Assembly: GCA_951406725.2 (NCBI GenBank)
Contig: OX597822.1
Coordinates: 64,046,001-64,110,000 of the forward strand
DNA from: Octopus vulgaris
Taxonomy: Eukaryota
Direction of reading: 5' to 3'
Length of the DNA stretch: 64,000 bases
In this document: positions 13,139-55,982 of the stretch, piece after piece
Layout of the letters: every line of letters starts with the position of its first letter
Position numbering within the stretch: the first letter of the stretch is position 1
The notes under the pieces: generated by a model
Databases searched by the model: none
Seen by the model: the letters and a program-made list of their open reading frames with translations, nothing else
What the model was told of the DNA's origin: nothing
Translations under genes and position numbers: made by a program

Positions 13139-13566
13139 AGGTGGCGAGATGGTAGAAACGTTAGCACGCCGGGCGAAAGGCTTAGCGGTATTTCGTCTGC
13201 CGTTACGTTGTGAGTTCAAATTCCGCCGAGGTCGACTTTGCCTTTCATCCTTTCAGGGGTCGATAAATTAAGTACCAGTTACGCACTGGGGTCGATGTAA
13301 TCGACTTAATACCTATGTCTGTCCTTGTTTGTCCCCTCTGTGTTTAGCCCCTTGTGGGTAATAAAGAAATAGGTATTTCGTCTGTCGTTACGTTGTGAGT
13401 TCAAATTCCGCCGAGGTCGACTTTGCCTTTCATCCTTTCAGGGGTCGATAAATTAAGTACCAGTTACGCACTGGGGTCGATGTAATCGACTTAATACCTA
13501 TGTCTGTCCTTGTTTGTCCCCTCTATGTTTAGCCCCTTGTGGGTAATAAAGAAATAGGTATTTCGT
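13139..13566 (+). mobile_element. Family-B tRNA-derived SINE: head plus two 185-bp tandem units
   Basis: GGTATTTCG at 13187, 13372, 13557; B-box GAGTTCAAATTC; central GCCTTTCATCCTTTC..GGGTCGATAAA..AGTACCAG resembles the Meta/MESC SINE domain. Confidence 0.9.
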
Positions 13567-15924
13567 TAAAGAGAGTCGGGCTAGTCGATAAGAAAGAGTT
13601 GTCTTAGTGTTGTGATATAACAAGAGCTCGATAATAATGTCTGTTAGTTCCTAGCTGGTATTTTTTATTCAAATAATTGGGAGGAAATACCTGGAAAACT
13701 AGTGAAAGCCTGTAAAAACAAACGTCATTTAAAAAAAAAAAACATTTAATAAAACCACGTTGAACAAGAAGTTAAGAATTGAGCTCTGACATTCTACAAA
13801 ATGCCTTTATACGTATGTCACGTACATAGGCAGGCTTAAAAACTATTTTTCGTCCCCCCTACTACAATAAGAAAAGGTTAGTCTCGACCTGTTATTTCCA
13901 ATTTATTTATTTATTTATTTATTTATTTTGGTTGACAGCTCAAATGATGTCCTGCCATATCGTATATCAGATAAAGTTATTCGTCCATCTGATGGATTCC
14001 TGCAGTGAAGTCAGCGAGAGTCCGCAATTAAGTTTTCGTTATTCGTTATATATTTTTATACAAAACCCTCTGGCACCACAGATCCTGCACCTCTCCTTTC
14101 TTTCTCTCATCAAAAAAATTACTCGTGATCAACTAGCATAAACAATTTAAGAAACTTTGACAAATAATAATTGATAGAGACACATGACTAGTTAGTTTGG
14201 CTGGCTAAACCAGTCTAAATTTCACACAATCACACGATAAAACAATATAGGTAGAAACTAGAGACGAGAGAACTCGGTGGTAATTTAGACGAAACGACAC
14301 ATTTTAAAATGTGACTCGGCAGTCTCTCGATCTCGCTCGCTCGCTAACCGTAGATTCATATTTTGGTAGGATAAAAAAACAAGGTGAAAAAAAGAATAAA
14401 TAAATAAAATAAACACTTAAAACTGAAACAAATAACGATTAACGGGGGATCTAGAGAGAATTAACAATGTTTGGGTGCAAGAGGGATTGAATTGAATATT
14501 AGAGTGAACAATATTTGCAGGAGGGGGGTAATACTCAGAAGGTGGTTGCATGACCACACTGTAGGCGAACACCCTATTTTAGAAAATGCATTTAGGGAGC
14601 TCAATAAGAAAACATTCATTCTTGACAATGGTGTTTAGGAGCTGGGCAAACATCTGTTCTAAAATTGTCTTTATACATTTTAAGCATCAAAATGCATTCA
14701 GATCTCTACTGTGTGCGTGTGTCCATTAAAACCTGCTGTTGTTTTGCTTCAGGCCTATCATAATTAACAGGCTCTGTGGGTCAAAAGCATTCCAGTTGTA
14801 ACCACAGTAGGGTGTGATTTGAGAGAGATTTGGCTGTTGTTTCTAGCAGGCCGAGCGACAACAATGGAGCTTCCCTAATGCCTCGAAGAAAATCTTTGAT
14901 GAAAGGTGGCATTACCACTACCACCACCACAACGAAACAGAAATGTCACAGAAACCTGCTGTGAAGTCTCTCATCACGTTTCCTTTTATGGTGGGGTTTC
15001 CATCTCTCGTTACCCACTATTGGTAACTAAGGAAACAAAAAGAGGAAGACAGGCAGGTGAGCAAATATCGGAACTATAAAAAGGACGTTTGAATCATCGT
15101 ACCTCTTCGGGAATCTGCTTAATTCCTTAAGGTCACCTTGACATTTCAGAAAGTTGAAGAAAAGAAACGGAATCTTTATATCGGGATAAACGTCGGGTAG
15201 GCGGGCTGGGAAAAACGAATGCAACCGAAAAGAATCAAACAAAACAAAAACTCATAAACGGACGAAAAAAAAAAAAAGAGAGAGAGAGAGAGAAATGAAT
15301 CGTCCCAAATTTACACCCATGTAATAAATAAGAAAGAAAGAAATGAAATAGAAATATTAAAACAAAGACACCCAAAAGCCTGTGAGAGACGGGATAAAGT
15401 TTATGGGAGACAAATTTCATAGGTCGTTAGACAAAATCACAATGGAGATGTGGAGGAGACAGCTATTTTGTTGTAGGAGCTGAAGAAGCAAATTTCCTGT
15501 CTAGACTAACTAGAAAAAAAAAAAAAAAAAAAGGAATTTTCTTTCTGAATAATTCAGGGCTTGGCATTTCGAGAAACAAAAAAACCACTGAACATTTCTA
15601 TGTGATGCGATATTTTGCAATTATCTTCTTTCCAAGGACACACGCTCACATATAGAAAAAATAATGTGAAGAAGTGTGGGGGATTTTAAAAAAAAATTTT
15701 AAGAATAATCAACAAGGAATGCCTAAAGGAAAGAAAAGGCAAAACGAAACCATATTTTAAGACGAAAATCATTGTTATTTATTTGGAGGTGAGTGGTAGA
15801 ATAGATAGGGACCCAGACCAGAAGAGCTCAATGTTTCGGTAAGGTTGTTTGACTGACTATAAATAGCAGTCAAATCTTCCTTAAATCACACTTCACCGTC
15901 TCAATAATAATAATAATAATAATC

Positions 15925-16122
15925 ATTTCTACTCTAGGCACAAGGCCTGGAATTTGGAAAGGGGACTAGTCGATTGCATCGACCCCAGTATTTCATTGCT
16001 ACTTAGTTCATCGACCTCGAAAGGATGAAAAGCAAAGTCGACCTCGGTGGAATTTGAAATCAGAACGTAAGGACGGCCGAAATGCCGCTAAGCATTTTGC
16101 CCGGCGTGCTAGCTCGCCGCCT
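15925..16122 (-). mobile_element. Family-B SINE with the older tail
   Basis: TCTACTCTAGGCACAAGGCC tail through GCTCGCCGCC head. Confidence 0.85.
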
Positions 16123-16266
16123 AAATGATGATAAAGACACATTGGCTGATGTAGTCCAAGGTACTGGATGTTTGTAATGAAAGATGGGATGGTCATAATT
16201 GAAACGCCAAAGGACCAATCAGTAAATCTGTTCGATCACTTTATTCTTTTCGTTCATCACCTTATA

Positions 16267-17104
16267 CAGGGTGTCCCAAAAGTCACTGATGGATTTCAAT
16301 TTTTAATAACTTCCTTAACTTTATAAATAAATGCATTAAATTTTGATGCAATATAAAGGACATAATGGAAATTAATGGGCATGATTCAAATTTTGCAACA
16401 CCACTACATGGCAGCCATTTTCGACTTCGCACGCCCGTGCTCTTTCCAAAGCTTGCACCACAACACTTTCAAGAGATTCAGACCCCATTTCATTGATTTT
16501 TCTATTGATGTTCTCCTTTCAGTTGCACCAGGGTCTCCGGTTTGTTGACGTAAACCATCTCTTTCAGGTAACTCCCCATAAAAAAATAAAAAATCCAGGC
16601 TGGTCAAGTCTGGGGAACGTGAAGGTCAGCTAACATTGCCGTAGCGGGAGATTGTTCTCCCTCCAAAGCACAGCCGTAGCAAATGCCTCGTTTGTCTTGC
16701 GGTATGAGAAATTGCGTTACCCCATCTTGCTGGAACAATGAGCGAGGTCTACTTCAAGTGGCCTTCACGTTCCCCAGGCTTGATTAGCCCAGATTTTTTC
16801 TGGTGGGGATACCTGAAAGAGAGGGTTTACTTCAACAAACCGGAGTCCTTGGTAAAACGAAAGGAGAGGAGAACATCAATAGAGAAATGGAGTCTGAAAC
16901 TCTTGAGGGTGTTAAGGTGCAAGTTTTGGAAAGAGCACCGGCTTGCGAAGCCGAAAATGACTGGCATTTAAGCGATGTCGTTTTTCATATGTGACGTAGT
17001 AGTGTTGCACAATTTGACTCGTGCATATTAATTTCCATTATGCTCTTTGTATTGTATTAAAATTTCATGCATTTATTAGTCAAGTTAAAGAAGTTATTCT
17101 AAAA
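16267..17104. mobile_element. Fold-back Tc1/mariner remnant built from two inverted transposase 3' ends
   Basis: TA+CAGGGTGTCCCAAAA terminus; minus arm FQQDG..PSRSPDLTSLDF..YLKEMVYVNKPETL; plus arm WPSRSPGLISPDFFWWGYLKERVYFNKP..ACEAENDWHL; frameshifted. Confidence 0.9.
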
Positions 17105-17234
17105 CATACCCGCATACATGCCTTCCTCGTAAACTGTTATGGTGCAAGTAAAATATCACCTAGTCAACTCCCTACTTCAAGATGACGTAACAGATTCTAT
17201 TAGGTGGTGCTATAATTAAGTTAGACACGGCCAT

Positions 17235-17608
17235 ACTCTTTACTTGTTTCAGTCATTCGACTGTGGCCATGCTGGAGCACCGCCTTTAGTCGAGCAAATC
17301 GACCCCAGGACTTATTCTTTGTAAGCCTAGTACTTATTCTATCGGTATCATTTGCCGAACTGCTAAGTTACGGGGGACGTAAACACACCAGCATCGGTTG
17401 TCAAGCGATATTTGGGGGGAGGGGCAAACATAAACACACACATCTATATATATATATATATATATACGACGGGCTTCTTTCAGTTTCCGTCTACCAAATC
17501 CACTCACAAGGCTTTGGTCGGCCCGAGGCTATAGTAGAAGACACTTGCCCAAGGTGCCACGCAGTGGGACTGAACCCAGAACCATGTGGTTGGTAAGCAA
17601 GCTACTTA
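17235..17608 (-). mobile_element. Young family-A SINE
   Basis: Close to the family consensus seen in this window; extreme 5' end truncated. Confidence 0.9.
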
Positions 17609-19744
17609 CAGACCGAAACACATTTAAGTTTAAAACATCGATTAACACAACGACATACATTTTGCATAGGGAAGCAGTTGATATAAAATTGGGTATGTAT
17701 GTTGACGGGGACAACATTGTTTTTGCATATCCCACTTCTGACAGATAACGTTAAATTTTTCGAATGGCGGTGCCCCAGCATGGCCACAGCTTGTGAGCTG
17801 AAACTAGATGAAATGGAATGATATTCGTAATCTCCAACATGTTAAACCTAGGAATTCGAATAAACTTTTTCAGAAAAATGTATTTTTCAAGGTAAAGTGC
17901 AAATCTGCATTAACCCCAGATATAATAAATCACAGCATTTCACTGATACTTTATTTTATCGACCAAGAAAAGCTGACTTCAGTTATATTTAAACGTAGAT
18001 TGTAAAAACACTGATATAAAACATTGCAAGCACTCCCAAAGCCTCCCCCACCACTTTTCTCGGTACTTCACTAAATCTTCTCTTCGATGTATACATAATT
18101 AAATATGGAAGAAAAAAAAAAAAAACCTCATAAAAATATATGAGGGATATTTTGTTAGTAAATCTTAAGGTGAAAGCATTTGTTGAAAAAAGAGGAGCGG
18201 GGAAATGACTACAGCTTTCAATTAGTTGTTCCCCTTCTTCACCACTCTCCTGTAATGTGGGAGAGAACATGGCCGGAGAGGAAGTAGAAGCAACAGTATT
18301 AAAAAACGAAGACATCCTAAGACAGGAAAAGTGGGTCAGGGATAATTTTTAACGGCGGATAGCAAAAAAAAAATTTGTTTAGAAACGCACGAACCAACCA
18401 ACGAACGTGGTGAACGAGTGTGTACGCCACGACACGGCACAGATCTCCACCGTCACTTCCACTTTTTAACACACCAGAACCACCACCATCACTACGACCA
18501 TCACTAACACATCGTCAACGGAATAAGTACCGCCGCTGCCTCTAGTAGCATTATCATTAGAACTATCCCACACTTCATCACCAGAGGAACCGCCACCAAC
18601 TACAGCAACAGCAACAACAACATCAATTTATATTTATAAGCTTGGGTTAACACAACATTCGCCATTCAACATACTGTGGTGGAGGTGGATAATTGAAATA
18701 ACATATAAGGAAAGGGAGCGACTGCGTAAGACATTTTTTGATGAGGGTGGTGGTGATGGTGGTGGTGTGGATGGGCGGGTGGGGTGAGAAAGAAGTAAAA
18801 AAAAAAGAAAATATATATATAAATAAAGGAAAACAAAAAACAAAAATTGCTGATGGGCAACCAGGACTTGTCTGGTTGGCTGACTGTCGTATCGCATCGG
18901 GTGTGGTCAATAAGTGAAGTTTGAAGCAACTATGGGATTACAGCTGTGTGTATAAGTGTGTGTGTGTGTGTACATTACACATACAAAAATTCTCACTCAT
19001 ATTGTGTTTACTCATACAGAAATTCAGAGACGACACGTGTATGTGTGTGCTGTAAGGAAAAAACGGAAAACAGTTATTCGTTATGTGCAAGGGAAGCTGT
19101 ATTAGTTTAAAACAGCAATCTGTGCATTATACTTAACGTAGATACATCACAGAAGGCCAAATTAGCTGCAGTATTCGTCCTGAGATGATATCTCTTAGAA
19201 ACGAAGTGTATGTCAGTAACAGACGAAAATTGTCCAGCAGCGGTGACAATATTGACTGGAAGGCATTTCTGCTTCTTTGAGCTTCGTATGTAGCAAGTAC
19301 CCAGAGGAAACGCATGCATTGGCAAAATCCATCGTCACCGAGACAAGAAAACAGCGACTGAAAAATTACTGGTGTCGCAGATAGCCGGTGAGCTGAATGA
19401 AAGTTCCTTAAGAGCAACAGAAGCTATATTAGTCTAAAACAGTAATCTGTGTATGATACTTAAAGCATATAAATCACGAAATCCGCATTAACTGTGGTGT
19501 TTGTCTTGAGATCAACATCTCTTATAAACACGTACAATGCGAAATGTGAAGAGGAAGACTGAAAACAAAGGGAGAAAGGAGTAAAATTAGTTTAGAGGGC
19601 TTTCAGCGCAGAGTATCTTGATATTCGTTCGGAACGAGTAATTCTTCGCTTGGTAAGCTGGTTCATCCTGGAACAAGTACGACCAATCATGGACTAAGCC
19701 CACTTCTACCACATAAGCGTACACGCATATATATATATGCATAC

Positions 19745-20733: not shown

Positions 20734-20770
<37 letters not shown>

Positions 20771-23477
20771 TTCTTGTTCTCTCGTGGCATTCGTCCGTAC
20801 ACTCCCACAGCTCTCAACCCTACCTCTTTCTCTCTCTCCTTTTCCCTCACACAAACAGACGTGCGCGCACGCACACAGCTGCAGCAACCACTACCACCAC
20901 CATCACCACTACTACTTAAAGCGTGTATGTAAAACAGTTTAAGGCTTGTGTATTACGTTCAAAGTTTGGGAATTGTTCTTTCCTTCTCGTCCTGAGCAAT
21001 TAAAATTGTTCTTAAATCAAACCCTACACCTAAAAAAGGTATCTAAAATTACATTGGATAATGTGGATACACGGGGTCAGAAAAAAAAAGCGCAGGATGT
21101 TCAAAGAACTACTCAGTTGAATTTATTTATTAGAAAAATGGCTAGTAGAAAAATGTTCCCGTAACCAAAGGCTTAAAAGTGTGTTTGGATATATATATAC
21201 GTCTTCCATTATACTGCGTGTATGTAAACGCAGATAAGAGGAAAGATATATTTAATTTAAAGAAATAAATGAAATAGAGCTGATTTAATTTGTGAATCAA
21301 AGCTTGTGTTATCAATAGGGTGATTATTTCTATTGGCCTTTAAGTGAAGATTTTTCAATGAGAGATGTGAAGATGTGACTTTCACGACTTTCCAAACAGA
21401 TTAGAGAATTTACCATCTGCGTACCAGATGACATTCACAGACGTGTTGAGAAGGAAAAACAACCAAAACAAAAATATATACGAATGTCAAAGATCTTACA
21501 TGAAAGACATCAACATGAGCAGTTAAGTAACTTAAACCAGTAATTACGATTAGCGAAGTAAAAACAGCAAAAAGAAAGGAAAAAGAAAAAACATCAATGC
21601 TTTCTAAAACCTTGTGCTTAGTTCTGATTCCATGGCGTTAAACACAAGAGAGTTTAAAGTGCCTTTGGAAGGGACGCCTGACTATCGCTGGTAACATTCC
21701 CAGAAGATCTGGTGTCTATTTATGGCGTGTGTTGTCCGGGAACAGAACGGAACGCCTGTGGTGGTTTTGAATTCATGAACTTGCGAGCCTGTTGTAGTCC
21801 AATACACCTTAATCATTCGACCACTTCGATTTTGTTCGAAGACAAACGACACGAAGAATGTGGCAGAGGAATGTAGAAGAACAAACATTGGATGAAGAAA
21901 AGAGCGAGGAGAATGGACAAAGGAACTACACGTGATCCTTGCTTGTGAAGTTGTGTTAAAGGGAAAATAATTACTGGACATCTGCATACACACTGGACAC
22001 AGATTCCTAATTAGATAGACCAAAACAATACATGGTGGACGCACTGAATGAAGCTTGTGATTTGGGTAGACAGACAGATCATACAGGTCAAGAGAAACTG
22101 CGTATTTTATTATAGTGTGTGGATGTAGTTAGATTCAGAATTGAGAAGAGGCATAAATCGCCTGTTCACACGGCAGGCGAGAGAATGAAGCAAAGAGAGA
22201 GAGAGAGCGAGAGAGAGAAGATAAGCGAATTGGTTGTAAAGGGGTTATTATTTTCACCCATAAACTATCACTTCAAACACATCTCATCTCTCCCTAATAT
22301 AAAGCCATACACCAAACGAGCCACGAACGAGCCAGTCCCTCTCTCTAGGCGGTCGCTAAATCTGCTAGAATTAACAGTCAAACACCATCGCCACCCTAAA
22401 CCATTCGTCGGCTTTTTTCATCATGAAAAAGCCGACAACTGACAGTTCACACTGACCGGGGCTACGTACAGCAATCAAAATACAAGTGATAGCTTAGCTT
22501 AACCACGAAGGTTTTAGCTTGTTAATAGTATTAAAAAAATACCATCAACACAAAACCTCGTTGACAATTTTGGCGGCAAATACAAATTTTGCCTTCGAAA
22601 AACTGCTTTTTTCTTTCTCTCTCATGATTTACACAAAATATCGATACAGATAGTGGCTTAGCTCGTTCGATCGCTATTTTATCAAAAATTTCTTGTATGT
22701 TATTCACACAAAATAGAAGAGAAACTATTGTTACTAATATATGGAAACAAAACATTTCCGGGATCCTACTGATCGGGAAGTCTCTTCGTAGCTACTTGAT
22801 TTGCTAGAAATAGCAGCAAATAAATCTTTCCAACTAAAAAAAAAAAGAAAAAGAAAGAAAGAAAAACCATATTTGGTTAAGTATGTATTGTATAAATAAA
22901 ATATGGGGTTGTCATGGCTGAAGCGACTTTGATTATATTTTTGATTAAAGGTTGACTTTGGAGCTAAACAAACAATTTCCACGAGCAGACAAGGGAACTT
23001 ACAAGTGGCCGCATTACCCGTTAGAAACCGAAACCAGATCGACCTCAAATCACATCCTATTGTCTAAATGAGCGATATGAGACTCCCCCCGTTTCACATT
23101 TATGAATTCATAGGATTAAAGGTTCGTTATTTTTTCTAGTGTTCCGCAGGTTCTTATACAGTCTTATTTCACCCTGGAGCTAAAAATGCGCCTCATACCT
23201 GGTCTAAATATGAGAGGATAGTCGTACCTGAAATGCCTCTGAGCCCCGGGGCGAAATTTCTATTACAGGAAGCTTCAATTAGCAATTAGAACTAGCGAAT
23301 ACAAATAATCCCTCGCCATATCGCGGTTTATCACTCAAGCTTACGTCGATTCCTCCGTTTTGCATTTATAATATAATAAATATATACAAATTATAAAAAT
23401 ATAAAAATGAGTACAGTACACTACTGTACTCTTCGCGGGGGTTTTGGAACGTAACACTCGCGATAGTCGAAATTACC

Positions 23478-23705
23478 TATTTCTTTACTACCCACAAGGG
23501 GCTAAACACTGACAGGACGAACAAGGACAGACAAACGGATTAAGTCGATCATATCGACCCCAGTGCGTAACTGTACTTATTTAATCGACCCCGAAAGGAT
23601 GAAAGGCAAAGTCGACCTCGGCGGAATTTGAACTCAGAACGTAACGGCAGACGAAATACCGCTAAGCATTTCGCCCGGCGCGCTAACGTTTCTGCCAGCT
23701 CGCCG
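23478..23705 (-). mobile_element. Young single-unit family-B SINE with target-site duplication
   Basis: CGCGATAGTCGAAATTACC at 23459-23477 and 23704-23722. Confidence 0.92.
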
Positions 23706-24499
23706 CGATAGTCGAAATTACCGTAGATCCAAATTTCAACGCGGACCACACACATATATATTCGTGCATATAATATACATACGCATAACAAGCACACATT
23801 TAACTATTCATCCATACATTTATATGTATACATAAACATGCATAAACAAACAACCACACACACATATTGACTAAAACTACTTCTGCACACACTCTGCAAC
23901 ATCTATTCCGTCAGTTTCGCGTTTTGATCGACATAATCAAAATATAAATCAATCTGGATGCTTAGAGAGAAACAGACGGAACAATGTTTATAGTTTGGTT
24001 TTGACCGAACTAAATTATTTACACTTTATCTTCGGTCTTGAGTACTTTTTCGCATGTCCGGTACCGTGTGTGTATACACAAACACACCTGAAATGTTGAC
24101 TGATCAATCAATACACAGAACAATAGCACACGTTAATTGCTTTCCACAAAAGGTAGAGGTGTGGAAAGAGGTATCGCAGAAATCCGTGTTCTACCGTTCT
24201 ACCACGAAGCTTTTTTTGTTTTTTTGTTTTAGCTGGTTTAAAGAAATCGCTTCCTGTTCGAGGTTTTTTTTTTTACGAGTGCAAAAGATTGGATGAGGTG
24301 TGTGTGCATGTTGAATAAACTGATGCGTAACTGGTGTAAATAGGCAGAAATGTGGACAGAGAGAATTAAAGAATAACTGAAACATAAAATAGTCTAGAGA
24401 GAGAAAGAGGAAGATAGAACAAGTTCACAAAATATAGCAAACGAAATACATAATCACAAGTTCATACACACATACACACACACATATATATATATATAA

Positions 24500-24734: not shown

Positions 24735-24737
<3 letters not shown>
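24500..24737 (-). mobile_element. Family-C tRNA-derived SINE, alternative 3' tail
   Basis: Head GGAGGCGCAATGGCCCAGTGGTTAGGGCAGCGGACTCGC shared with the copy at 56217. Confidence 0.85.
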
Positions 24738-25647: not shown

Positions 25648-26600
25648 CAGTGGCTCTCAACCATTTCTTACCTACGGAACCCTCGATTACTATTTCACTC
25701 TGGTGGATTCCCATAGTCATTCGATGTTTAAAAAACTAGTTTTATAGAAACTTCTTCCAAAACTCCCGTTTTGTTTTTCGCACATTAACCCGTGTAGGTT
25801 GAAATATGTAAAACATTAGAGAAAGAAATCTTACAGTTTGTTGCAAATAAACACGCTTAAAGCAAAAGATCTTTTCATGGACTCTTATTTCTTTACATAT
25901 TTAATCGACCTCCAAAGTTGCCCACGGCAGATTTGAATTCAGAACGTAACGGCAGACGAAATACCTATTTCTTTACTACCCACAAGGGGCTAAACACAGA
26001 GAGGACAAACAAGGACAGACAAACAGATTAAGTCGATTGTATCAACCCCAGTGCGTAACTGGTACTTATTTATCGACCCCGGAAGGATGAAAGGCAAAGT
26101 CGACCTCGGCGGAATTTGAACTCAGAACGTAAAGACAGACGAAATACCTATTTCTTTATTACCCACAAGGGGTTAAACACAGAGGGGACAAACAAGGACA
26201 GACATAGGTATTAAGTCGATTACATCGACCCCAGTGCGTAACTGGTACTTAATTTATCGACCCCGAAAGGATGAAAGGCAAAGTCGACCTCGGCGGAATT
26301 TGAACTCAGAACGTAAAGACAGACGAAATACCGCTAGACATTTCGCCCGGCATGCTAACGTTTCTGCCAGCTCGCCGCCTTTTTTTTTTTTTTTTTTTTT
26401 GGGGGAGCAACGTGAAACGAAGTGTTTTGCTCAAGAACACAACGCGTCGCCCGGTCCAGGAATCGAAACCATAATCTTACGATCATTATGCTGACACTAA
26501 CCACTAAGCCACGCGCCTCCACCTTTCATGGACTCTTCATATACTACAGTTGTTATTTTGTTTGCGTGGGTTCTCAGGAGTTATATTGACACCGTGAACA
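25648..26600. mobile_element. hAT-like MITE interrupted by a composite SINE
   Basis: CAGTGGCTCTCAACC left terminus similar to the MITE at 37699; right end degenerate. Confidence 0.5.
25887..26523 (-). mobile_element. Composite insertion: family-D SINE head + poly(A) + family-B head and tandem units
   Basis: Flanking direct repeat TTTCATGGACTCTT at 25873-25886 and 26524-26537. Confidence 0.8.
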
Positions 26601-37854: not shown

Positions 37855-40294
37855 CCCTGTGTACTAAACATAAATATAAATAGCCGGACGACAGTTGAGA
37901 ATTATACAATGTACTCGAGCTTGGCAATAATCTAAAAGTCCTGGCGGGGGTCTAATCCTGCTTCAGCCTGCTTGAGTTTCTCCACTTTATATGAAGCCAA
38001 AGAATTTTTAGCGATGAACCAGCTACCCAATGGCTTCTGAACACACAACTGTATCTATCTATCTATTCATTGTGCAAGTCTGGGTATGGCAAACTTTGGC
38101 GTGAAGTTCCATCGTCCAGATTCGACCACAAAACGGAATTGGTTAATTTACATCGCTTTATGTCATACAGAAAGGTATGAATGCTGTGGACTCCCATTTC
38201 TGTATCTCTCCGTCTCTGATATCTACATTAAAAACAACAACAAAAAACCATACACACACACACACACACACACTAGCATAAGTGGTGTGTGTCTGTGTGC
38301 AGTTCTCCGTGCGCAAGCTCTCTCGAGCACACACGCAATACTAAAACAGTAGTAGCTGTATAGTAAAGCTGTGTTGACTAAATTATGCAGAAAGGGACAG
38401 TTCCGTGAAGAAAGTAATAAAGCGTCCCGGGGACGATGAAAAAGAAAAAAAGGGAGCCCGGCATGTATAAATGAGTGCAAAAAGTAAGGGGGGGTGTCAT
38501 CATTTAAACGGTTCAAATTTAGCAAATGTACTGAGCCAACGAGTGATCACTATACACGCTAGAAATAGTAGTGAAATCAAATCTCATTCAATCACAGCCT
38601 ATTGACTTTAAAATGAGAAAGATACAGTGTGTGTGTATATATGAGTGTGTGTGTGTGCAGAACTGTGAATGAAGGTGTTTTAGTTATGACTAACCCGTCG
38701 TATGTGAAAGGAAGGTGTTGCAATTACGACGGGTTAGTCATAAATGGAACGCATTTGCTCATAGGTGTGTAGACCAATCAGCAAATGGATTCCAGCTTAT
38801 GGGGCTAACCTGAAGACAAAAGAACAACTGGTTACTTAAGATTCATCTTCTTAAATCCCAACTTGATGGGATCTTTAAATAGGATAGACAGAAGAGAAGA
38901 GAGAGTTAAACACGTTTCACGCAGCCAGTCTTTCTTTCTTTCTCTCTCTCTCTCTCTCTAGCATGCGTTCGGATGTAACTTCCACTGACCAAGTCAAGCG
39001 ACACCTGCAGCCAACGCCCAGTTGGTGGTAGCAATGAGGAATGCAGACTTGGCAGTGCAATAAAGACTTCAGCTTTGCAACTCTGTGGTATCAAGTTCGA
39101 TCCTTCCATGCATTAATTTGGGCAAATGTTTTTGTTTTTTTTAATTTTCTTTTGTCATAGCCTTATGAATAAAATTCAGAAAATTATCAGAAGAATCGTC
39201 ACGTTTGTTTTGAAATAAGATTTAAACTATCGTATTGTTTTACACCATAATCACCTCGCACTTGTAAAGTCTTTACTAGAGTTTTCTGGCTTGATCTTGG
39301 GGATACCGAAAGGGATCATGGGCGTGGACTTTCTCAGTTTTATCTTTTACTTTTTGAAAAGTTTTGGTCAAACAAATCGACCCCGGGACCTATTCTTAAG
39401 TATGGTACTTATTCTATCGGCCTCTTTTGTCGAACTGCTAAGTGACAGGGACGTAAACGGACCAACGGTTGTTAAACGGTGAGTAGGTAAACACACATAT
39501 ATGTACAAACACGATGGGCTTCCACACAGTTTCCGTCAACCGAATTCACACACAAGGTCGATCCGGTGATATGGAAGACCCTTGCTCAAGTTGCTGCGCG
39601 ATTGAACCCGAAATCATGCGGTTGAAAAGCGAGCTTCTAAACGCGCATATGCAATTAAACAAAATCAATTAATTTCGAGCTAATTATATCTTCATATCGT
39701 GCTTATGTGTCTGATAGTATATCCATATTTCTAGGAGAAACCTTCAGTAATCTATCACCAGTGCTAAAAGTTCTGGTAGGACCGCATCCGTTTAGACGTT
39801 TGGCCCGCCGTATACACTGGACCGTACAACCTAACACTTAACTTTCGTACATGACCGTACAGGCGCCCGTCCCGTAACCAATCTTACTCGTGCATAATTA
39901 AATCTATACAACCATGCAGATGTATAAGTATTATATAACATAACTATTTATCATCTATCGATTTATACACTTTTAATCGAGTTACCGTTTGAAAGTTTTT
40001 TAATAACTGAATAGATTTAATGCTCATATTTAGCCAGAATCTTTGATCATATGCAGAAGATAAAACAGGCTTTGTAATTGATTTTTATCCATCTACCCTA
40101 GAATGTTACCTGTAGGATGAAGCAAAAAATCTAAATTTTGAAAAAAAGGAAAAAAAAAATTTTTTTTTGTTTTATGAAATACAGGAATATTGAAAAAAAT
40201 TTTTTTAAAAAACTGAAGGCGGGGAGACTGACCATACAAATATCACCCTAAAATTTTAATTAATCTGCCAAATAATAGCAAAATCAATCCTTTT

Positions 40295-40692
40295 TATAAT
40301 TTGCACGAGGCCTGGAATTTTGGGGTGGGTGGGGTGGGAGAGGGCTAGTCGTTTACATCGACCCCAGTGCCTCAACTGGTAACTGTTTACATCGACCCCG
40401 AAAGGATAAAAGGCGAAATCGACCTGGCAGAATTCGAACTCAGAACACAAGGACAGTCGAAATACCCATTTCTTTACTACCCACAAGGGGCTAAACACAG
40501 AGGACAAACAAGGACAGACAAACGGATTAAGTCGATTATATCGACCCCAGTGCGTAACTGGTACTTATTTAATCGACCCCGAAAGGATGAAAGGCAAAGT
40601 CGACTTCGGCGGAATTTGAACTCAGAACGTAGCAGCAGACGAAATACTGCTAAGCATTTCGCCCGGCGAGCTAACGATTCTACCAGCTTGAT
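40295..40692 (-). mobile_element. Old family-B SINE carrying an inserted young unit
   Basis: Young tail joins GGGTATTTCGAC of a diverged copy that ends in the older tail. Confidence 0.85.
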
Positions 40693-43151
40693 GTCTTAAT
40701 AATAATAATGCCTAAAGTTAGAGAAAAGGAGCTTAGTCGATAAAATATTTCACTGTTGGCACTTTATTTTGACGATCCCGGTGAAATGAAGAGCAAAGAA
40801 TTAAGAACCTAGGTGGAACTCGAACTCAGAAAAAAAAAACTACGAGGTACTTTTTTCCCGACGATTCTGCCAGCCAGCTCGCTGCGCTCACTTTTTTTTT
40901 CCAATAAAGTAACAATGACGGTAGTCGATTTAATCAACTTCAGTATTTTATCAAACTCTTACGAAATAAAGAAGCAGTAGAGCCGGGGGCCGGATTGGGA
41001 TTCACGAAATGAAAGACGGCAAAATTCATTTAGGTACAGCGTTTCACCGTTTACTGTCTCAAGTTGTCCAGTAGAAGAAAGAACAAAAAGAAAAAAGCAA
41101 AAAAGCTCACTATCCTAGGTCAAAAAACACACGACAGGTATTATTTAGATGTAATGATCCACCGTCATTATCACATAACAATTATTTCTTTTATTAGGTT
41201 ACAGGGGTATCAGATAAGGGGACAGCTAATAATAATTGTTCGTAATTTAGGCACAAGACTAGCAGCAACCTCGCACGCGAGCCTTTTTTTTTTTTTCTTT
41301 TGCTAAGGAGAGGGCTACACGACACCGCTGATGCCAGTACTTGATTAGAATTTTATTTTATCGATTCCGGGAAGGACGAAAAGCAACACTGATCTCGACG
41401 GGATTTGAACTTAGAACATAAAACAGCGAAAAAAAATTATCGCAAGATAATTTCGCCGATGCTTTAACGCGTCGCCCTGCTTGCTCATAATGCTGATTTC
41501 GACAGAAGACCAACGATTTTGACGAGAAGTTTAGTCGATATTATTGATCTTCCCACAGTTCCACTCCAGTACTAGACTAGTATTCTATTTTAGCGGCCCC
41601 GCAAAGATGACAAAGTAAAATTGATTACGATGAAATCAGAACGTAAAGAATAACAATATTGCTATTATTTGAAAGCATTATTATTATTATTATTACTACG
41701 AGACATTGCCTTTCATATAATTTCGGGGTCGATAAAATAAGCACCAGGCAAGTTCTGGGGTCGATGTATGTAACCAGCTATCCCTTCCCCGCCAAATTTC
41801 AAGCCTTGTGCCTATATAGAAAAAAAAAAAATTTTTATTGTTACTGCCCCGCAAATACTAATAATGCTTCCGGCATAGGCACAAGCCCCGATATTCTTTA
41901 CCTTATTTGCCTGTGAGGAATTAGTCGATATCATCGATCCCAATACTTGATTGGTACTTCATTGTATCGACCCCGAAGTGGACTTCGGCAGTATTTGAAC
42001 CGAGAACAAAAAGCCGGAAGATATACTGCAAGGTATATTTAATCCGTCGTTCTAACGGTTTTCCCAGTCCACCGTACTATACAAATTCACCTGAACAACA
42101 ATTTATTGTATAGATAGGCACGAAGCTAGAAATTTGGGAGTATTGGAAGGAACACGGAACACTCAATTATAATATCAGTCCCCGTATTTAACTAGTACTT
42201 TATTTTACCGTGTCCCAGAGACGAAAGCACACTTGACTTCAGCGGAATTTGAACACCCAATCACAAACAGACAGAATAGATGCCAAAAGGTATTTTTTTT
42301 CCGACGCACTAACGCTTCAGTTCAGACCCTTTAATGGAGCTTTGAATTGTTCTGTTGATGAAATTACCCTTCCAATTAGTTCGGTAGACTTTCAGTTGTT
42401 CATTAGTGTCCTGCAGAAACTAGTAATTTAATGTTTATATTGATTAGTTAAACGGTAAATAATATACCATGACGACGACGATGACGAATATATATTATTA
42501 CAAGCTTGCAAGTTCATAGGGATAAGATAGAATTGTGTGTGTGTGTGCGTGCTGCACATCTTTAGTGCATAGCAATGTTGAAAAGAAAAGATCAGTGTGT
42601 GTATACACACATTATTGATTCAAATAAATTAACTCTGATATAAAAATCATCCGTAAGTGTCTTTCACACTCACAAACACACATACACTCAAGGAAGATAC
42701 TGTAAATGTCTCAGCATACAGGAAAAACCCATTTCCCATTGTCTACAGCAACAACGGTGCATTGGAGAATCCTGCTCTCTACACCTGTCTGTCTATCTTT
42801 ATTCTAAACGAAACTTTGTAGCCGAGATGACGATGCTACTATGATACAGTCGTGCGAAGCGAAACGAACACAAATCTTGGTCAGTTTTGATAGCTTTTGT
42901 ATTCGTCCAAGCATGTTCAAGCCCTGTAGCCAACTATATATTTTTAATAATAATAATAATAAGGATGTGAATTGGTAGGGTCATTAGAATATCAAACAAA
43001 ATGCCTTGTGGTATTTCCTTTACGTTGTGAGTTCAAATCCTACCGAGTTCAGCTTTGACTGTTAATCTTTCGGACTTGACAAAATGTAACTATAACCCAT
43101 GTAGCGAGATCAGTTTAATCGGCAACCCTTCACACCACCAACAGATTTCTG

Positions 43152-43253: not shown

Positions 43254-43992
43254 GATTTCTGTCCTTCTTCGTTAGAAACGGCAGTGCTTATTATTAATAA
43301 GGGTAGCGAGTTGGTAAAATCGTTGGCACGTCGGACAAAAACGCTTGGCGGCATTTCTTTCGGCTTTACGTTCTGAATTCAACATCGTATCGGAATCGAT
43401 AAAGTACCAGTTATGTACTGTAGTCGATTACATCGACTAACCTATTCCCCTAAAAAAAATCTCAGGTCTTGTTGAAAGGATTAATCTTGGAGGGTAGTGA
43501 GATGGCAGAGTCATCTGCTCGACGGACAAAATGTTTAGCGGCATTTCTTCCGGTTTTACGTTCCGAGTTCAAATTCTGCCGTGGTCGACTTTACCTTTCA
43601 TCCTTTCGGGGTCGATGAAATTAAGTACTAGTCAAATCCGGAGGTCGATGTATTCTACTAGCCCCACGCCTCCTAAAATTTCAGGCCTTGTGCTGATTAG
43701 TAGAAAGGATTTGTTAAAGGGACGGATAAACTGCCTTGTGCTCTTTCGTTACATTAATGTTCTGTGTTGAGTTTTCTAAGTGGCCGATGCTGATAAAATA
43801 AGCACTGGAATCAGTTACAGGCAAATTGTCTTATGATATTTAAAGTTATGTACCTATGTTCTGGGGGTCAACAATACTCAAGCTAGCTTTCATCCTTCCG
43901 AGATAGCTAAAATAAGTACCAGTGATTGATTGCACCTGTACCCATCATTAATTCTGTAGCCAAGTATCATGATCAAAAATTATTAACATTAC

Positions 43993-48162: not shown

Positions 48163-48208
<46 letters not shown>

Positions 48209-49860: not shown

Positions 49861-52120
49861 GAGTGCGTATTTATTTATTATGTGTAGAAGAGAATAGAGA
49901 AGTTGTGTGTTCGCTGTATGTGTATACGAGTGTCTATCCGTCAGTCTGTATATATGTTTAAATGTATGTTTGTATGTACTTGTGTATATGTCAACGAATT
50001 AACATGTAAATTTATGCCCCCAAGTATATAATATATGTGTGTGTGTGTGTGCGTGTGAATGTGTATATCTATCTCTCACCGTGTGTGTGTATATATATAG
50101 TGTATATATGTATGTATGTGCGTGTGTGTGTGTGTGTCACATGTGTATATGTATCTACGCTCGCTTTACTAGCGTGCGCTTATGTGTCTGTGTATATCTA
50201 TTGAAACACATGCATGTGTGTATGTGTGCGTGTGTGAAATACGGAAGCACACACACGCATGCGTGTGTGTAACAGGGAGTTAAAGGGGATACGCGTGTGT
50301 GCATATGTATATAGCGTGTATGTATCAGTCAAGGAAGAGGATGTGTGTGTGTGTGTGTTTATGCGTATATCTTAGAATTAATATAGTGTAAACGTGTGTG
50401 TATATGTATATTGGTAAATTAGTATAGAGTATGAATGTGTGCTTATATATGGGGATGTCAGTCTTTTAAATGTATGCGTTTATATATCAGAAAAATAAGC
50501 GAGTGTGTGTATTTATGTGCGTGTGTATATTTATGTACTTGTATAATGTATCTCAGTAAAGTGCGTGTGTATATAAACACGTGTGTGCATTTGTGTTTGC
50601 ATGTTTATCAGTGAATTAAGGTTGTATGTGTGCGATTAAATATCTATAATGTATGTATTTGTTCGTGAATTAAGGTAGCACTTGGGTGTGTGTTAGCAAT
50701 GCACACATAAGTTTATATATGTGGATATATGCACACGTGTATGTGTGCATGGAATCATGACTCGGTAGATGTGCACGTACGCACGAGGCGTGTGTGTTCG
50801 TCGGTGTGTGCGCGTGTGTCTGTCAATGAATTAACATCGTACATGCGTGTGTGCAATACATGTGTCTGTGTGTTCAAGAGTGAAGAGATGAGGGAGATTA
50901 CACGCTTGTGGCGGCCAGTGTAGGAAGATTGAGGAAGGGGCTGGATATGAGAAGGATGAAAAAGTAAAAAGATAGGGGATAGTGGGAGGTATAGAGTAAC
51001 GTAAGGGGAGAGGTGAGAGAAGAACATAGGCGTTCAATAGGAGGGGGTGGAAGTAGGCTTTTAAAAAATAGAAGGCAAGAGAAAGGATGCTAATGGCTAA
51101 AGGTTCTGAAGGGGACGTGAATAATGGTTATATAGAGGATAGAGAGTGAACGTTGCAGCAATGGTGGAGGTGATGGTGGTGTGACGGCTATAGTAGTCAT
51201 GGTGATAGTATTGGCAAGGACTTGCTCTTAATGTTGATAGTGATAATGATGTTGGTTATGGTAGTAGTAGAAGTGGTGGCGATGCTGGTATTGAGTGGTA
51301 GAACGTTTTCGTTGATGTTGATAGTTGTGTTGTTGAGTTACTAAGATAGATTCAGCCATGATCGAAAAACATAGATCTATATAGATCAAAGAATTTCAGC
51401 CTTGACCAGCTTTTAGATGTATTTAGGACATTGCATTATCTAAAGCATCCTTATCCGTTTTAAGACAGTGAGAAGCGGTGTGTGGCTATTATTTCTAGCA
51501 GATCTAGCAGCCACAGACTGACACCCTGTTAAGCCTCATTTTGGTTGATGTTAAGTGTAGTTTTTTGGTGGGGAGTTGTTGGCGGTGAGACTTAAAAAAA
51601 TTTTGTTTTATTTTGCTAGTATTGTTGTTGTTGTTGTAGTGATTGTTATAACGGTTCTGTTTGTTCCGTTGTTTAGCCCCGGGTCAGGTGTGGATCAAGC
51701 AGACCTAAGATCAAAGTCAATCAAACTACAGATGGTATGGTATTACAAAACCATACCAGCTTTTTTTTCTTCTACCTCTAGGAAAAAAACGAGACCACAA
51801 AATCATTCATTATACAACATATCTTTTCCTGAGAATCGAGGAAACATTGGCTGATATTTTTAACAGGTTTCGAGCGACTTTGACGAAACTCTCTCGTTGG
51901 TTCGTAGTCGCAGCAGCGGCGGTAGCGATGTGGGTCGAGCTGTTGTTGCTGTTAGCCTCAGGTCAGCGCTGATTAAACAAACCAATAATGAAAGATATTC
52001 CAACTATGGCTAATTTTGTCTTTTTCTATACCTCGGACTACATTACACAAACGTGCCTTCATTTTTTTAAAAAAAGGTAGGGTGTTTTTGAGAAAGATTT
52101 GGTAGCTATTTTTTCCTAGT

Positions 52121-52170
<50 letters not shown>

Positions 52171-52172
<2 letters not shown>

Positions 52173-52382
52173 ACTCTTTTACTCGTTTCAGTCATTTGAC
52201 TGCAGCCATGCTGGAGCACCGCCTTTAGTCGAGCAAATCGACCCCAGGACTTATTCTTTGTAAGCCTAGTACTTATTCTATCGTTCCCTTTTGCCGAACC
52301 GCTAAGTTACGGGGACGTAAACACACCAGCATCGGTTGTCAAGCAATGGTGGGGGACAAACACAGACACACAAACACACACA

Positions 52383-52454
<72 letters not shown>

Positions 52455-52629
52455 CATGTATAAGACGGGCTTCTTTCAGTTTCTGTCAACCAAATCCACT
52501 CACAAGGCTTTGGCCGGCCCGAGACTATAGTAGAAGAAAGACACTTGCCCAAGGTGCCACGCAGTGGGACTGAACCCGGAACCATATGGTTGGTAAGCAA
52601 GCTATTTACCACACAGCCTCTCCGGCGCC
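52171..52629 (-). mobile_element. Young full-length family-A SINE
   Basis: Complete head to tail with internal (CA)n, adjacent to (CT)n. Confidence 0.92.
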
Positions 52630-52841
52630 TATATAGTTGGCTGAAAAACTTGTACAAGTTAGTTGCGTTAGTGGTATTGTCGGTGTTGTTGTTCAGCCCC
52701 AGGTCAGTCCTTCTCCAGCAGACATATGGTCAAAGGCGCTCTTGTTATGACCATCCAGTTATTCTATATATTGGGGACTACATTGTCCAACATATCCTTT
52801 AATTAGCACGGGTGTGATTTGGGGGAAGATTTGTAAATTTA

Positions 52842-53225
52842 TAGGTGCAGGCGTGGCTGTGTGGTAAAAAGCTTGCTTCCCAAGTACATGGTTCTAGGTT
52901 CAATCCCACTGCGTGGCACCTTAAGCAAGTGTCTTCTATTATAGCTTCGCGTCGCCCAAAGCCTAGTGAGTGGATTTGGTTGATAGAAATTGAAAGAATC
53001 CCGTTGTACATATGTGTGTGTGAGAGAGAATTCCTGAGTCTGTTTGCCCCACCACCACCGCTCGACAACTTGCGTTGGTGTATTTGAGTCCCCGTAACTT
53101 AGCGATTCCACAAAAGAGATCGATAGAGTAAGTAGCAGGCTTAAAGAGAAAAGAAATACTAGGGTCGATTCATTTGACTAAAAAATTCTTGGAGGTGCTC
53201 CAGCATGGCCGCAGTCTAATGAGTG
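52842..53225 (+). mobile_element. Family-A SINE, inverted relative to 52171-52629
   Basis: GGTGCAGGCGTGGCTGTGTGG head to GCAGTCTAATGA. Confidence 0.85.
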
Positions 53226-53394
53226 CGAACACCTAGTAATCATTCTGTCTTTCTCTTGTGCAGGGAGCCAGGATAACGTTATCCAATGAATTGTATTTTT
53301 AAGACAAAAAGGATGATTTGAAAGTGATTCGGCTGCTTTTTCTTGCTGATCAAGCGACTTAGTAAAGGCATTATTATTATTGATCTTAATCCTT

Positions 53395-53603
53395 TCCATT
53401 AAAGGCACAAGGCCCGAAATTTTGGGGGAAGAGCTAATCGATTATATCGACCCCCAATACGCAACTGGTAGTTATTTAATCGACTCCGAAAGAATGAAAG
53501 GCAAAGTCGACCTCGGCGAAATTTGAACTCAGAATGTAAAGACGGACGAAATGCTGCTAAGCATTTTCCCGTCATGCTAACGATTCTGCCATCTCGCCGC
53601 CTT
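53395..53603 (-). mobile_element. Family-B SINE with the older tail
   Basis: AAGGCACAAGGCCCGAAATTTTGGGG tail; TCGCCGCC head. Confidence 0.85.
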
Positions 53604-54074
53604 AAATTACTGATCTTAATAATAGAGATATCCTGGCCGTCGTTGTCCTCGTTGTTGTCGTGGTTATTGTTTTACGACATCCTTCTCAAACTTAACACCA
53701 TTGTTTTTTATAAAATTGTTGTGGATTGTTTAGATCAGGCCTGACCGTGATCAGAAGTATCATTGTAATGGTCATCTCGTCTTTCTGTTGAACACGGTCT
53801 ATCTGGTGTACTTCCCTTCCTCACCGACATTGTTTTGTAAAGATGATAGTCTACTGGGCGTATAATCTACCTGAGGTTATTACACAGCAGAAACTATTAA
53901 AAAAAAAAAACCTTTGCCTATCGAGAGCAGCGAAATATAGGCTGGCCTGGATACCCCATCTCTGTCAGGCTTTCTTACAGTCACTATGGAGGGGAAGAAG
54001 AGGTGGAAACAAAGATTCGTACTTTTAGATCAAATACTCTCTCTCTCTCTCTCCCAATGTTTCCCTCGTCTCTT

Positions 54075-54205
54075 TTTTCTGAAAAAGGACTAACGTCCGA
54101 AACGTTAGAGCGCTCTATGAGCATTTCAAATACTCGTCTCAAGTTATCAACTTATACTGTATTCGCTGTAGTTTTTCTTTCTGTGTTATGTTTTATAACT
54201 TTACA
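54075..54205 (+). mobile_element. Penelope-like 3' end fragment with a degenerate minimal type-I hammerhead (54079-54110)
   Basis: CTGAAAA-A-GGAC-TAAC-GTCC-GAAA-CGTT; downstream similar to rc of 57838-57930; ends at TA/TG microsatellite. Confidence 0.55.
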
Positions 54206-54900
54206 TTATATCTATATGTGTGCACATATATGTGTGTGTGTATGTGTGTGTGTGTTTGTGTGTATGTGTGTGTGTGTGTGTGTGTGCGTGTGTATACATG
54301 TGTCATACACACAGAATAAAAGAACAAGAATGAACAACGCAAACGTTTGCTACATGTGTTTCCATAGCGTGGTCTTTTATTCAACAATACATAACATTGC
54401 ATAACTTCATATAAATTACATTAAGTTTATTGTTTCATCGAGCTATATTCAGCCTTTTATAAGCAAAGTCAAACTGTGAAGAAATATGTTTGCAGATAAA
54501 TATATTGAAATCGCAACACATTTCATCAGTGTTATTTTGCTTGTAAAAGACTCATGGCCTGATGAAGTGCCGGGATGGTGCACTAATATTAAGCTATGTA
54601 ATATATAATATTTTGCATAATTGAATAAATTACCACTCTATGGAAACGCGTGTAGGAAAAATCTGAGCTGTCCATATTGTTCCGTTGCTATATTATACAC
54701 CGCGTAATGTATACTGCTTCTTGATGCTACGTAAATGGATTTACGGGATGCTAACGTCGGTTTAACATCGCAATGGCCGCTGTATTGGTTGATTAGGACT
54801 ATTTATGCATTCTTTTTCAGTACCTTGTTAATTTGATATACCCCTTGGAGTGCTACCAAGTAAACTGCCAGGATCATTTAAATTCCCACTACTTTAAACA

Positions 54901-54957
<57 letters not shown>

Positions 54958-55186
54958 TAAGCACTTTTGTACGCATGTACAAGAGTGGAGCCGCTATTGA
55001 TAGTATCTGTGACCGAACTTTGAGTCACATTTGCCATTAAGAGCAACATTGAAACAAAACCGGAGCTTGGTCCTTATCTAAAGGCTCGTGGTAAAGAAAC
55101 TAGCCGTACATATTATATATGTATATGACTGCATTGAGGAAATGGTTAGTCTCGAAACCGTTTCAAAACCCAACATGTAAGTGTTC

Positions 55187-55248
<62 letters not shown>

Positions 55249-55390
55249 GTGTTTTTGAGTGTGTGGTGTGTATGGGCGTAGCCGCACTTTCGAGTTCCCA
55301 TTTATTGAAAATGGATACCTTATTAACTGATAAATTGGCGAAAAACAAAATTAAAACAAATGTTAATTAATTATTATATTTGTGTGGGAA

Positions 55391-55982
55391 GGCGGCGAGC
55401 TGGTAGAAACGTTAGCGCGTCGGGCGAAATGCTTAGCGGCATTTCGTCTGCCGCTACGTTCTGAGTTCAAATTCCGCCGAGGTCGACTTTGCCTTTCATC
55501 CTTTCGTGGTCGATTAAATAAGTACCAGTTACGCACTGGGGTCGATATGATCGACTTAATCTGTTTGTCTGTCCTTGTTTGTCCCCTCTGTGTGTAGCCC
55601 CTTGTAGGTAGTAAAGAAATAGGTATTTCGTCTGCCGTTACGTTGTGAGTTCAACTTCCGCCATGGTCGACTTTGCCTTTCATCCTTTCGGGGGTCGATT
55701 AAATAAGTACCAGTTACGCATTGGGGACGATGTAATCGACTTAATCTGTTTGTCTGTCCTTGTTTTCCCCCTCTGCGTGTAGCCCCTTGTGGGCAGTAAA
55801 GAAATAGGTATTTCACCTGTCTTTATGTTATGTTCTGAGTTCAACTTCCACCATGGTCAGCTTTGCCTTTCATCCTTTCGGGGTCGATAAATTAAGTACC
55901 AGTTGCGTACTGGAGTCGGATCTAATTTAACTGCCCCCTCCCCCAAAATTTCGGGCCTTGTGCCTAGAGTAGAAAGGATTAT
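55391..55982 (+). mobile_element. Family-B SINE array: head, two young units, one old unit
   Basis: AAAGAAATA|GGTATTTC junctions at ~55621 and ~55806; last unit ends in the older tail. Confidence 0.9.

Follow-up and report, generated by a model that had tools for sequence, protein, structure and literature searches.

What leads a short interspersed element (SINE) to a single position within its own family? The window analysed here, a 64-kb stretch of Octopus vulgaris DNA, contains a SINE family (family B) with an old and a young tail, and a sequence-only reading had proposed that the young subfamily borrows a site-specific LINE that cuts inside the head of family B itself. Our preferred explanation, which we hold with moderate confidence, is that the young tRNA-like SINE sits preferentially in front of GGTATTTC(G), likely by pairing of the last ~9 letters of its RNA with the nicked target, using the reverse transcriptase of a borrowed LINE.

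Identity of the repeat family

Family B gave 33 blast matches in the 64 kb, ~7% of the window, with ~233 bp per element, and is a short, non-coding, dispersed many-copy repeat; none of the 150 longest frames of the window reached the cut-off for a Pfam family. Its head contains what we take to be the A and B boxes of a tRNA-like promoter, spotted by eye against the usual consensus, and its predicted fold resembles a tRNA in which one arm is long (z -1.8). ARAGORN and Rfam returned no matches on the element, and no copies were found in viral, metagenome and prokaryote collections. When the element was compared with MetaSINE and other named central-domain superfamilies, neither of two core words occurred in PMC4824008 (supplement file 2); the consensus words of the family were likewise absent from the supplement of PMC13282606, and the excerpts of PMC5786205 and PMC4758252 do not name the family.

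Most young tails end at a fixed motif

All nine full young tails listed by the sequence-only reading were re-found, ending at 13371, 13556, 55621 and 55806 on the + strand and at 57366, 40467, 26149, 25966 and 23478 on the - strand. As it had claimed, eight of them are followed directly by GGTA(A)TTTC (GGTATTTC in seven cases and GGTAATTTC in one), and the ninth (57366) is an exception that runs into (TA)n. A probable tenth tail end at 25895, internally deleted and degenerate, is followed by AGAGTCC instead of the motif; with this one included, the motif stands behind eight of ten tail ends, the eight cases representing only five loci. The motif occurred 15 times in 128,000 strand-positions, tail-abutting cases counted in, and the chance of finding it at five or more of seven loci was p ~5e-19. 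Away from tails, exact 9-mers were present only in three young heads; the motif lies between the promoter boxes (A/B) of the family's own head.

Behind six of the ten tail ends in the window, the sequence continued as family B at this internal site, in agreement with the proposed self-targeting at a single position and with the 185-bp arrays, and above Kojima's threshold for target-specific SINEs of the Tx1-mobilised, SINEU-3 type, namely over 20% of flanks in one repeat (PMC4494074). Between a unit and the segment behind it, the opening 19 letters differed at 0-9 positions, so that the annealing step proposed below is deduced from a missing duplication. The earlier claim that young units at 40.5 and 55.8 kb run into older, diverged copies was also borne out, the old-tailed bodies differing from the family majority at 19/123 and 20/128 positions, respectively, and the young units at 2-9 of ~122. 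At 55.4 kb, an old copy was split by two young units and kept its own 14/15 duplication. The 13.1-kb array had been placed just after the equivalent site of an old head; this proved incorrect, as that site, near 12978, precedes the array by ~160 bases, and the DNA on the 3′ side of the array is not family B. At most two to three units were found per locus in the window, compared with the four or more middle monomers of a SINE-derived satellite (sSat).

Table 1. Family-B features in the window.
Feature	Position	Strand	Remarks
Young SINE-B	13140..13371	+	internal site GGTATTTCG at 13187, behind a tRNA-like head (to 13186); then body and Y1 tail
Start of Y1 tail	13493..13505	+	12/13 letters complementary to 13550-13562 (tail end + GGTATT)
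Second 185-bp unit	13372..13556	+	begins with site motif; 98.9% identity to first unit
Hairpin, 4 bp, CTTGT loop	13532..13544	+	common to old tail via two both-sided changes
GGTATTTCG behind last tail of 13.1-kb array	13557..13565	+	followed by DNA outside the family; upstream of array, no duplication detected
3′ copy of 19-nt target duplication	23459..23477	-	immediately behind tail
Single full-length young copy, Y2	23478..23703	-	within non-family DNA
5′ copy of 19-nt target duplication	23704..23722	-	starts GGTAATTTCG; last ~3 letters could also be start of head
Third unit, diverged, internally deleted	25886..25965	-	15/86 from majority; ends in probable tail remnant, no motif behind
Head and two young units	25966..26379	-	Y1 tail, then Y2 tail
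Old-tailed body, site motif at its start	40290..40466	-	directly behind young tail
Head with old-type letter (GAATC), then young unit	40468..40690	-	
Uninterrupted old-tailed copy, control	53391..53601	-	14/15 duplication beginning at ATT of own tail
15-nt duplication around whole 55.4-kb composite	5′ copy 55373..55387, 3′ copy 55978-55992	+	14/15; 0/1500 random flanks
Head and two young units within old copy	55391..55806	+	
Old-tailed body, site motif at its start	55807..55977	+	
Solo young tail, 59 bp	57366..57424	-	within (TA)n/(CA)n tract; off-site exception

In the contigs from one public run, the motif likewise followed most tails (depth-weighted). In runs X1 and X15, the latter being RNA at a guess, read depth continued across 13561-69 and was gone at 13570, and the X1 joints led from the young tail into many, variously diverged family-B bodies (both depth-weighted and from a single analysis). 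The raw-read runs yielded only 12 (X22) and 232 (X23) aligned reads, those of X23 being dominated by one variant array, and therefore give no count of independent insertions.

Target-site duplications open with the letters of the tail end

Clear duplications of 15-19 nt, a property of SINEs, were found at three of the ten junction pairs tested, and for each of them, including the exact one at 23.5 kb (19/19), 0/1500 random flanks scored as high. All three opened with the terminal letters of the tail, as in SINEs primed by 3′ overlap with the target (RTE, CR1 and L2 type), in which case the RNA of family B would contain these letters. Specifically, duplications started at ATT for old copies, whose tail ends in GGATT, and at GGTA for young ones, whose tail would end in GGTATT; the 3′ copy at 55.4 kb begins at the ATT of the old tail. 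Because the 23.5-kb duplication includes the motif, which is also present upstream of the head, the motif is target DNA at this locus, as the sequence-only reading had held. This target presented a 1-nt insertion within the motif, and such an extra base would suit a bulged RNA-DNA duplex better than a protein reading a fixed register.

No duplication was detected at the 13.1-kb and 26-kb arrays, and two old copies (16.1 and 43.5 kb) likewise gave none. The 40.7-kb junction yielded a weak 7-mer (21/1500 random flanks as high), and the test was uninformative at the solo tail at 57.4 kb, located within a microsatellite. Against the pairing model, a clean duplication was present at only one of the young insertions, and a young-type letter is found in the 55391 head even though the duplication around the composite is that of the old tail. 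A rolling-circle (Helitron) origin was set aside, the duplications being too long.

Tail homology and the probable end of the RNA

All six old tails could be aligned with the young tail, with scores reached by only 1-36 of 2000 shuffles. Both tails share the CTTGT-loop hairpin, which was 88% paired and changed on both sides in two of its four pairs; these both-sided changes may represent one event between two subfamilies, and the hairpin is a predicted LINE-recognition element. The young subtypes Y1 and Y2 showed three differences, each creating a pair, and two of these pairs involve letters of the motif. The Y1 fold stood out only modestly from shuffles (z -2.1, 9/200), and the Y2 tail folded no better than shuffles (z -0.02). 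TTTT, the RNA polymerase III stop, was absent from the young units, the nearest being 57-250 bases beyond the last tail.

Since the old and young tails are homologous and Y1 presents the 12/13 complement, the sequence suggests that GGTATT is probably the 3′ end of the element's own RNA as well as its target. The earlier reading had treated these as exclusive choices; the target side stood at 23.5 kb, and the exclusivity is probably too strict. If GGTATT is in the RNA too, the endonuclease may not be the only source of specificity.

A putative mechanism and its alternatives

Three observations are the starting point of the mechanism that we favour: the motif directly follows the tails, its duplication at 23.5 kb marks it as target DNA there, and old copies are interrupted by young units. 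The shared hairpin would likely act as a handle for the LINE protein. As young units have no TTTT and Y1 pairs with GGTATT, the RNA would end in GGUAUU(UCG). Reverse transcription by the partner LINE would start at a nick where the last ~9 RNA letters can pair with the target, and such a match would most often lie in the head of the SINE itself. The other end of the new DNA would then anneal to the matching head of the target, as the missing duplication suggests, which would leave only one head and lengthen the locus by a ~185-bp unit. Each insert would restore the spacing between the A and B boxes and leave a site at both junctions; with promoter layout and site restored, arrays could grow and read-through RNA would carry the guide letters again. 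Pairing of LINE and SINE 3′ ends with the target has been proposed for RTE, CR1, L2, I, R1Bm and R2Ol (PMC6007223), and the published overlaps in non-specific clades, from one to several letters, are shorter than the 8-9 letters found here, which speaks against pairing. A bolder extension, which we offer tentatively, is that family B is a homing SINE whose last 6-10 RNA letters serve as an alterable guide: through a minor alteration of the tail end, similar LINE machinery would have been re-aimed from ATT sites to the family's own head, and each insert would convert an old copy into a young, promoter-complete master with the guide present once more in its read-through RNA, so that the young tail takes over the old family in a self-reinforcing way.

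Site specificity of non-LTR elements is usually credited to the endonuclease. The strongest alternative, less probable in our judgement but a serious contender, is that a sequence-specific LINE, probably of the Tx1 clade, nicks at GGTATTTC, the SINE borrowing only its tail and the motif being purely target. The constancy of the motif over 8-9 letters and the 15-19-nt duplications agree with this, as do the precedent of SINEU-3/Tx1-Mar, with 90% of copies in one transposon, a 16-nt duplication and tandem copies (PMC4494074), and the listing of L1-Tx1, Dong-R4, Hero and R2 as recently active in Octopus vulgaris (PMC13282606). Against it, the complement in Y1 reaches across both the tail end and GGTATT, the old tail, with its homologous GGATT end, obeys the same rule with ATT, and the 23.5-kb target has the extra base inside the motif. 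Moreover, when the longest 150 among 351 non-repetitive frames of the window were scanned, none reached a Pfam cut-off or matched reverse-transcriptase or endonuclease families, and the five weak sub-cut-off matches were not relevant. Of the earlier interpretation, self-targeting at a fixed internal site was supported, endonuclease-only specificity is the less probable reading, and no partner LINE was found among these frames. A LINE-like 3′ fragment at 3559-3978, presumably RTE, was rejected as the partner, as it ends in (TGA)n, unlike the old or young tail. Our guess is that the partner belongs to the Tx1 clade and that its endonuclease may add a preference; RNA pairing and endonuclease-led targeting can both hold.

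Duplication at the DNA level would require that the element ends in GGTATTTCG and that its end and the internal site serve as partners in slippage or unequal crossing-over, from which the arrays would arise; such processes have been suggested for SINE satellites and for the SINE arrays of bivalves (PMC10702118, PMC11481361). The 13.1-kb units (98.9% identical and without outer duplication), the tail satellite of run X23 and the resemblance of 55.4 kb to the duplication-(SINE)n-duplication arrays of blood clams (PMC11481361) are in line with it, and it probably contributes to array growth. As the origin of the pattern we consider it improbable, because the motif is also upstream of the head at 23.5 kb (19/19) and adjoining 26-kb units carry different tail subtypes. 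In addition, young units differ from the adjoining old body at 21-26 positions and have another tail, and are therefore not local copies.

Still less credit is given to composite masters, in which a nested arrangement of head, units and old body arose early, once or a few times, and was recopied whole via the old tail, self-targeting being rare and merely amplified. The 55.4-kb composite combines an ATT-type bracketing duplication with a young-type head letter, and unit 55622 and the old body behind it have rare letters in common, in line with such recopying. It is opposed by the 31 positions at which the old body at 40.5 kb differs from that at 55.8 kb, by the many different diverged sequences to which the X1 joints lead behind the tail, and by the insertion of the young tail alone at 23.5 and 57.4 kb.

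Relation to known systems

Like family B, Alu supplies its own landing sites, as it inserts into Alu A-rich tracts, although its target is a homopolymer and whole nested copies are left. In R1 and R2, target-matching 3′ letters of read-through RNA help priming, as proposed here, whereas these elements are autonomous and target rRNA genes. The closest known system is SINEU-3/Tx1-Mar in Mariner-N4_AMi of crocodilians, in which a SINE is also sent to one site in an abundant repeat, with a ~16-nt duplication there and tandems formed by repeated insertion (PMC4494074). However, the target of SINEU-3 is another transposon instead of its own head, its tandems are whole copies around the duplication instead of one head plus 5′-clipped units, and it has an snRNA head and a known partner, while family B has a tRNA-like head and only a candidate partner (PMC4494074). 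In AfroSINE and Sauria SINE (RTE clade), the last RNA letters correlate with the insertion site, and the 3′ repeat agrees with the base that opens the duplication (PMC6007223). As here, a near-identical pair with different ends uses different sites and duplications are mostly >13 nt; in contrast, the overlaps are of 1-2 letters from simple repeats, compared with 8-9 non-repetitive letters matching the element's own head (PMC6007223). Blood-clam arrays likewise contain a first copy with a whole head, clipped middle copies, a last copy with a whole tail and one outer duplication (PMC11481361), and squamate SINE-derived satellites also amplify SINE segments in tandem (PMC10702118). Those arrays have been explained by unequal recombination of similar units, while the inner units of family B are younger, carry another tail and also occur singly at the same motif (PMC11481361, PMC10702118).

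Among the matches listed in open-access titles and abstract openings, a scope outside which Repbase lies, none described a SINE that targets one fixed position within its own head. Old and young subfamilies with homologous tails, different last letters and landing sites, and very many copies constitute a natural experiment, in which the shares of RNA pairing and protein in target choice are directly testable. The 185-bp units and the ~80-bp tail array offer an insertion-based route from SINE to satellite, a link that has been called poorly documented (PMC10702118). If the RNA end programs the site, this could be useful for retrotransposon-based gene insertion.

As a separate observation, the ~80-bp satellite in run X23 was a tail-only array.

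Most young tails precede a motif found within the SINE head

The DNA of the window is animal and rich in repeats, and family B, a tRNA-like SINE of ~233 bp, accounts for about 7% of it (33 blast hits). The sequence-only reading had claimed that eight of nine young tails are directly followed by GGTA(A)TTTC, the motif between the A and B boxes of the head (the internal site). This was borne out: all nine full young tails were recovered where they had been placed, with the motif directly 3′ of eight and (TA)n after the ninth. Since the motif occurs only 15 times on both strands of the window, the association is real and far above chance, even when counted as five out of seven loci, and young tails prefer this site. 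Of the eight motif-bearing tails, six lead, at the internal site, into family-B body and two into unrelated DNA. A probable tenth tail, a remnant, lacks the motif. The array at 13.1 kb had been placed just after the equivalent site of an old head; it lies ~160 bases beyond that site.

Contigs from two public runs (352,846 from X1 and 20,134 from X15) were placed in one alignment on a reference unit from the 13.1-kb locus. Relative to the tail plateau, contig depth, which is biased towards arrays, was 0.34-0.40 in 13552-60, 0.07-0.08 in 13561-69 and about zero at 13570, while the first two bins at the reference's true left edge gave 0.03 and 0.16. Compared with these left-edge bins, the profile indicates that most tail-bearing contigs align across the motif and do not extend into the 13.1-kb flank. 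Joints connected positions 13556-13566 to 13372-13411, and in several of them varied diverged letters intervened (15 joints listed, at least 184 more unlisted; X1 joints counted in part), as would be expected for tails preceding many different family-B copies. The raw-read runs X22 and X23 were small (12 and 232 reads). X23 contained a ~80-bp tandem of young tail plus 13 site letters, deduced from loose ends on both sides (45 and 22 reads) and carrying its own variants, such as 13558 G>C in 58 out of 90 reads; this tail-only satellite was absent among the 12 reads of X22.

The motif is target DNA and young units are nested in old copies

At 23.5 kb, a lone young copy is flanked on both sides by an exact 19-nt duplication (none of 1500 random flanks scored as high), which begins with a motif variant carrying one extra A. 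This confirms the proposal that the motif is target-derived at this locus. The 55.4-kb composite, made up of a head, a pair of young units and a body with an old tail, lies as a whole within one 14/15 duplication beginning at the old tail's ATT. An old copy without interruption, at 53.6 kb, has the same pattern. These three loci provided the only clear duplications among ten tested junction pairs.

Young units differ from the family majority at 2-9 of ~122 letters and old-tailed bodies at 17-36. At 40.5 and 55.8 kb, where young units had been read as running into older, diverged copies, the bodies behind the young tails are indeed old-tailed, with 31 differences between the two. The distinctness of these bodies, together with the duplication patterns, shows that young units sit in different old copies at one site.

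In the 55.4-kb composite, the second young unit differs in its first 20 letters from the old body that follows, while two rare variants lying 34-44 letters into the unit are common to both; gene conversion or a long duplication may be responsible. Old copies arranged head to tail (Table) may also seed sites for their own family.

Table. Positions of repeats and related features in the window
Position	Strand	Feature
2353-3084		Nine ~80-bp units in tandem, unrelated to family B
3559-3978	-	139-residue open frame ending in (TGA)n; no Pfam hit; resembles the C terminus of an RTE-type LINE
13372-13640		Reference unit for public runs
13520-13562		Tail with hairpin-plus-AATAAA layout
13557; 23477		Motif-bearing tails running into unrelated DNA
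25895		Probable tail remnant
26380-26500	-	21-nt A run and head of another SINE family, preceding the 26-kb array
40690-40790; 43302-43711		Old-tailed copies head to tail; next family-B head directly behind ATT-rich tail end
55622-55690; 55807-55880		Second young unit; old body sharing its rare variants
55930-55981		Old tail with hairpin-plus-AATAAA layout

Tail structure and the RNA end

The young tail could be aligned with each of six old tails (1-36 out of 2000 shuffles reached as high a score), the aligned ends being AGAAATAGGTATT in young and AGAAAGGATT in old tails. Both contain a 4-bp hairpin around CTTGT, paired in 88% of cells, in which two of the four pairs differ in both letters between old tails and young, possibly through one event. 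We take the hairpin-plus-AATAAA layout to resemble Rex1/CR1-type LINE 3′ ends, and the old tail presumably also resembles R4-type ends; both are candidate partners.

Of the two young-tail subtypes, Y1 and Y2, Y1 makes up about 40% of X1 depth at diagnostic places. Its opening 13 letters are complementary at 12 positions to the tail end plus GGTATT, and with the motif its tail has a folding energy of -13.3 kcal/mol (z -2.1), against -6.8 (z -0.3) without it. No comparable gain over shuffles was obtained for the Y2 tail with the motif. Whatever gave rise to this complement, selection or a single fold-back copying event, the Y1 master apparently carried GGTATT. TTTT, the standard RNA polymerase III terminator, is absent from young units and first occurs 57-250 bases beyond the last tail; transcripts made by polymerase III would therefore read through the motif. 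Besides being target DNA, the motif is probably the end of the RNA as well.

Proposed mechanism and alternatives

Most likely, a putative partner LINE binds the tail hairpin, and reverse transcription would be primed at a nicked strand through pairing with the following ~9 letters of the RNA. Old copies, ending in GGATT, land at ATT, and young copies, ending in GGTATT(TCG), at that sequence. Away from tails, exact 9-mers occurred only in three young heads; with one mismatch there were nine sites in family-B heads and seven in other DNA. In the predicted fold of the head, the site makes up the 3′ strand of a long arm. In no array of the window does a second whole head come after an old half-head, and when a unit is compared with the segment behind it, their first 19 letters show 0-9 differences. 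We infer that the far end of the new DNA anneals to the matching target head, so that one head is kept and a ~185-bp unit added. Such annealing would restore the spacing of the A and B boxes and keep a copy of the site at either junction, and through this feedback arrays would grow.

Targeting led by the endonuclease is a possible, though less probable, explanation, and both models can hold together. It has a good precedent in SINEU-3, which Tx1-Mar delivers to a single transposon, with duplications of 16 nt and copies in tandem (PMC4494074). In O. vulgaris, Tx1 LINEs and LINEs of the R4 type are active (PMC13282606). DNA-level duplication may lengthen arrays but is improbable as the origin, because it cannot yield the 23.5-kb duplication or young units within old bodies. 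Composite masters, which fit the 55.4-kb locus but no other, are slightly less probable still.

RNA pairing, as favored here, recalls the link of RNA end to site in RTE-type SINEs (PMC6007223), and the target preference is like that of SINEU-3/Tx1-Mar. Among the titles and abstract openings listed by literature searches, none described a SINE directed to a set position within its own head; Repbase, MetaSINE supplement file 1 and subscription papers, outside this scope, may already name family B. SINE arrays of blood clams share the outward shape of those in family B and are ascribed there to recombination (PMC11481361).
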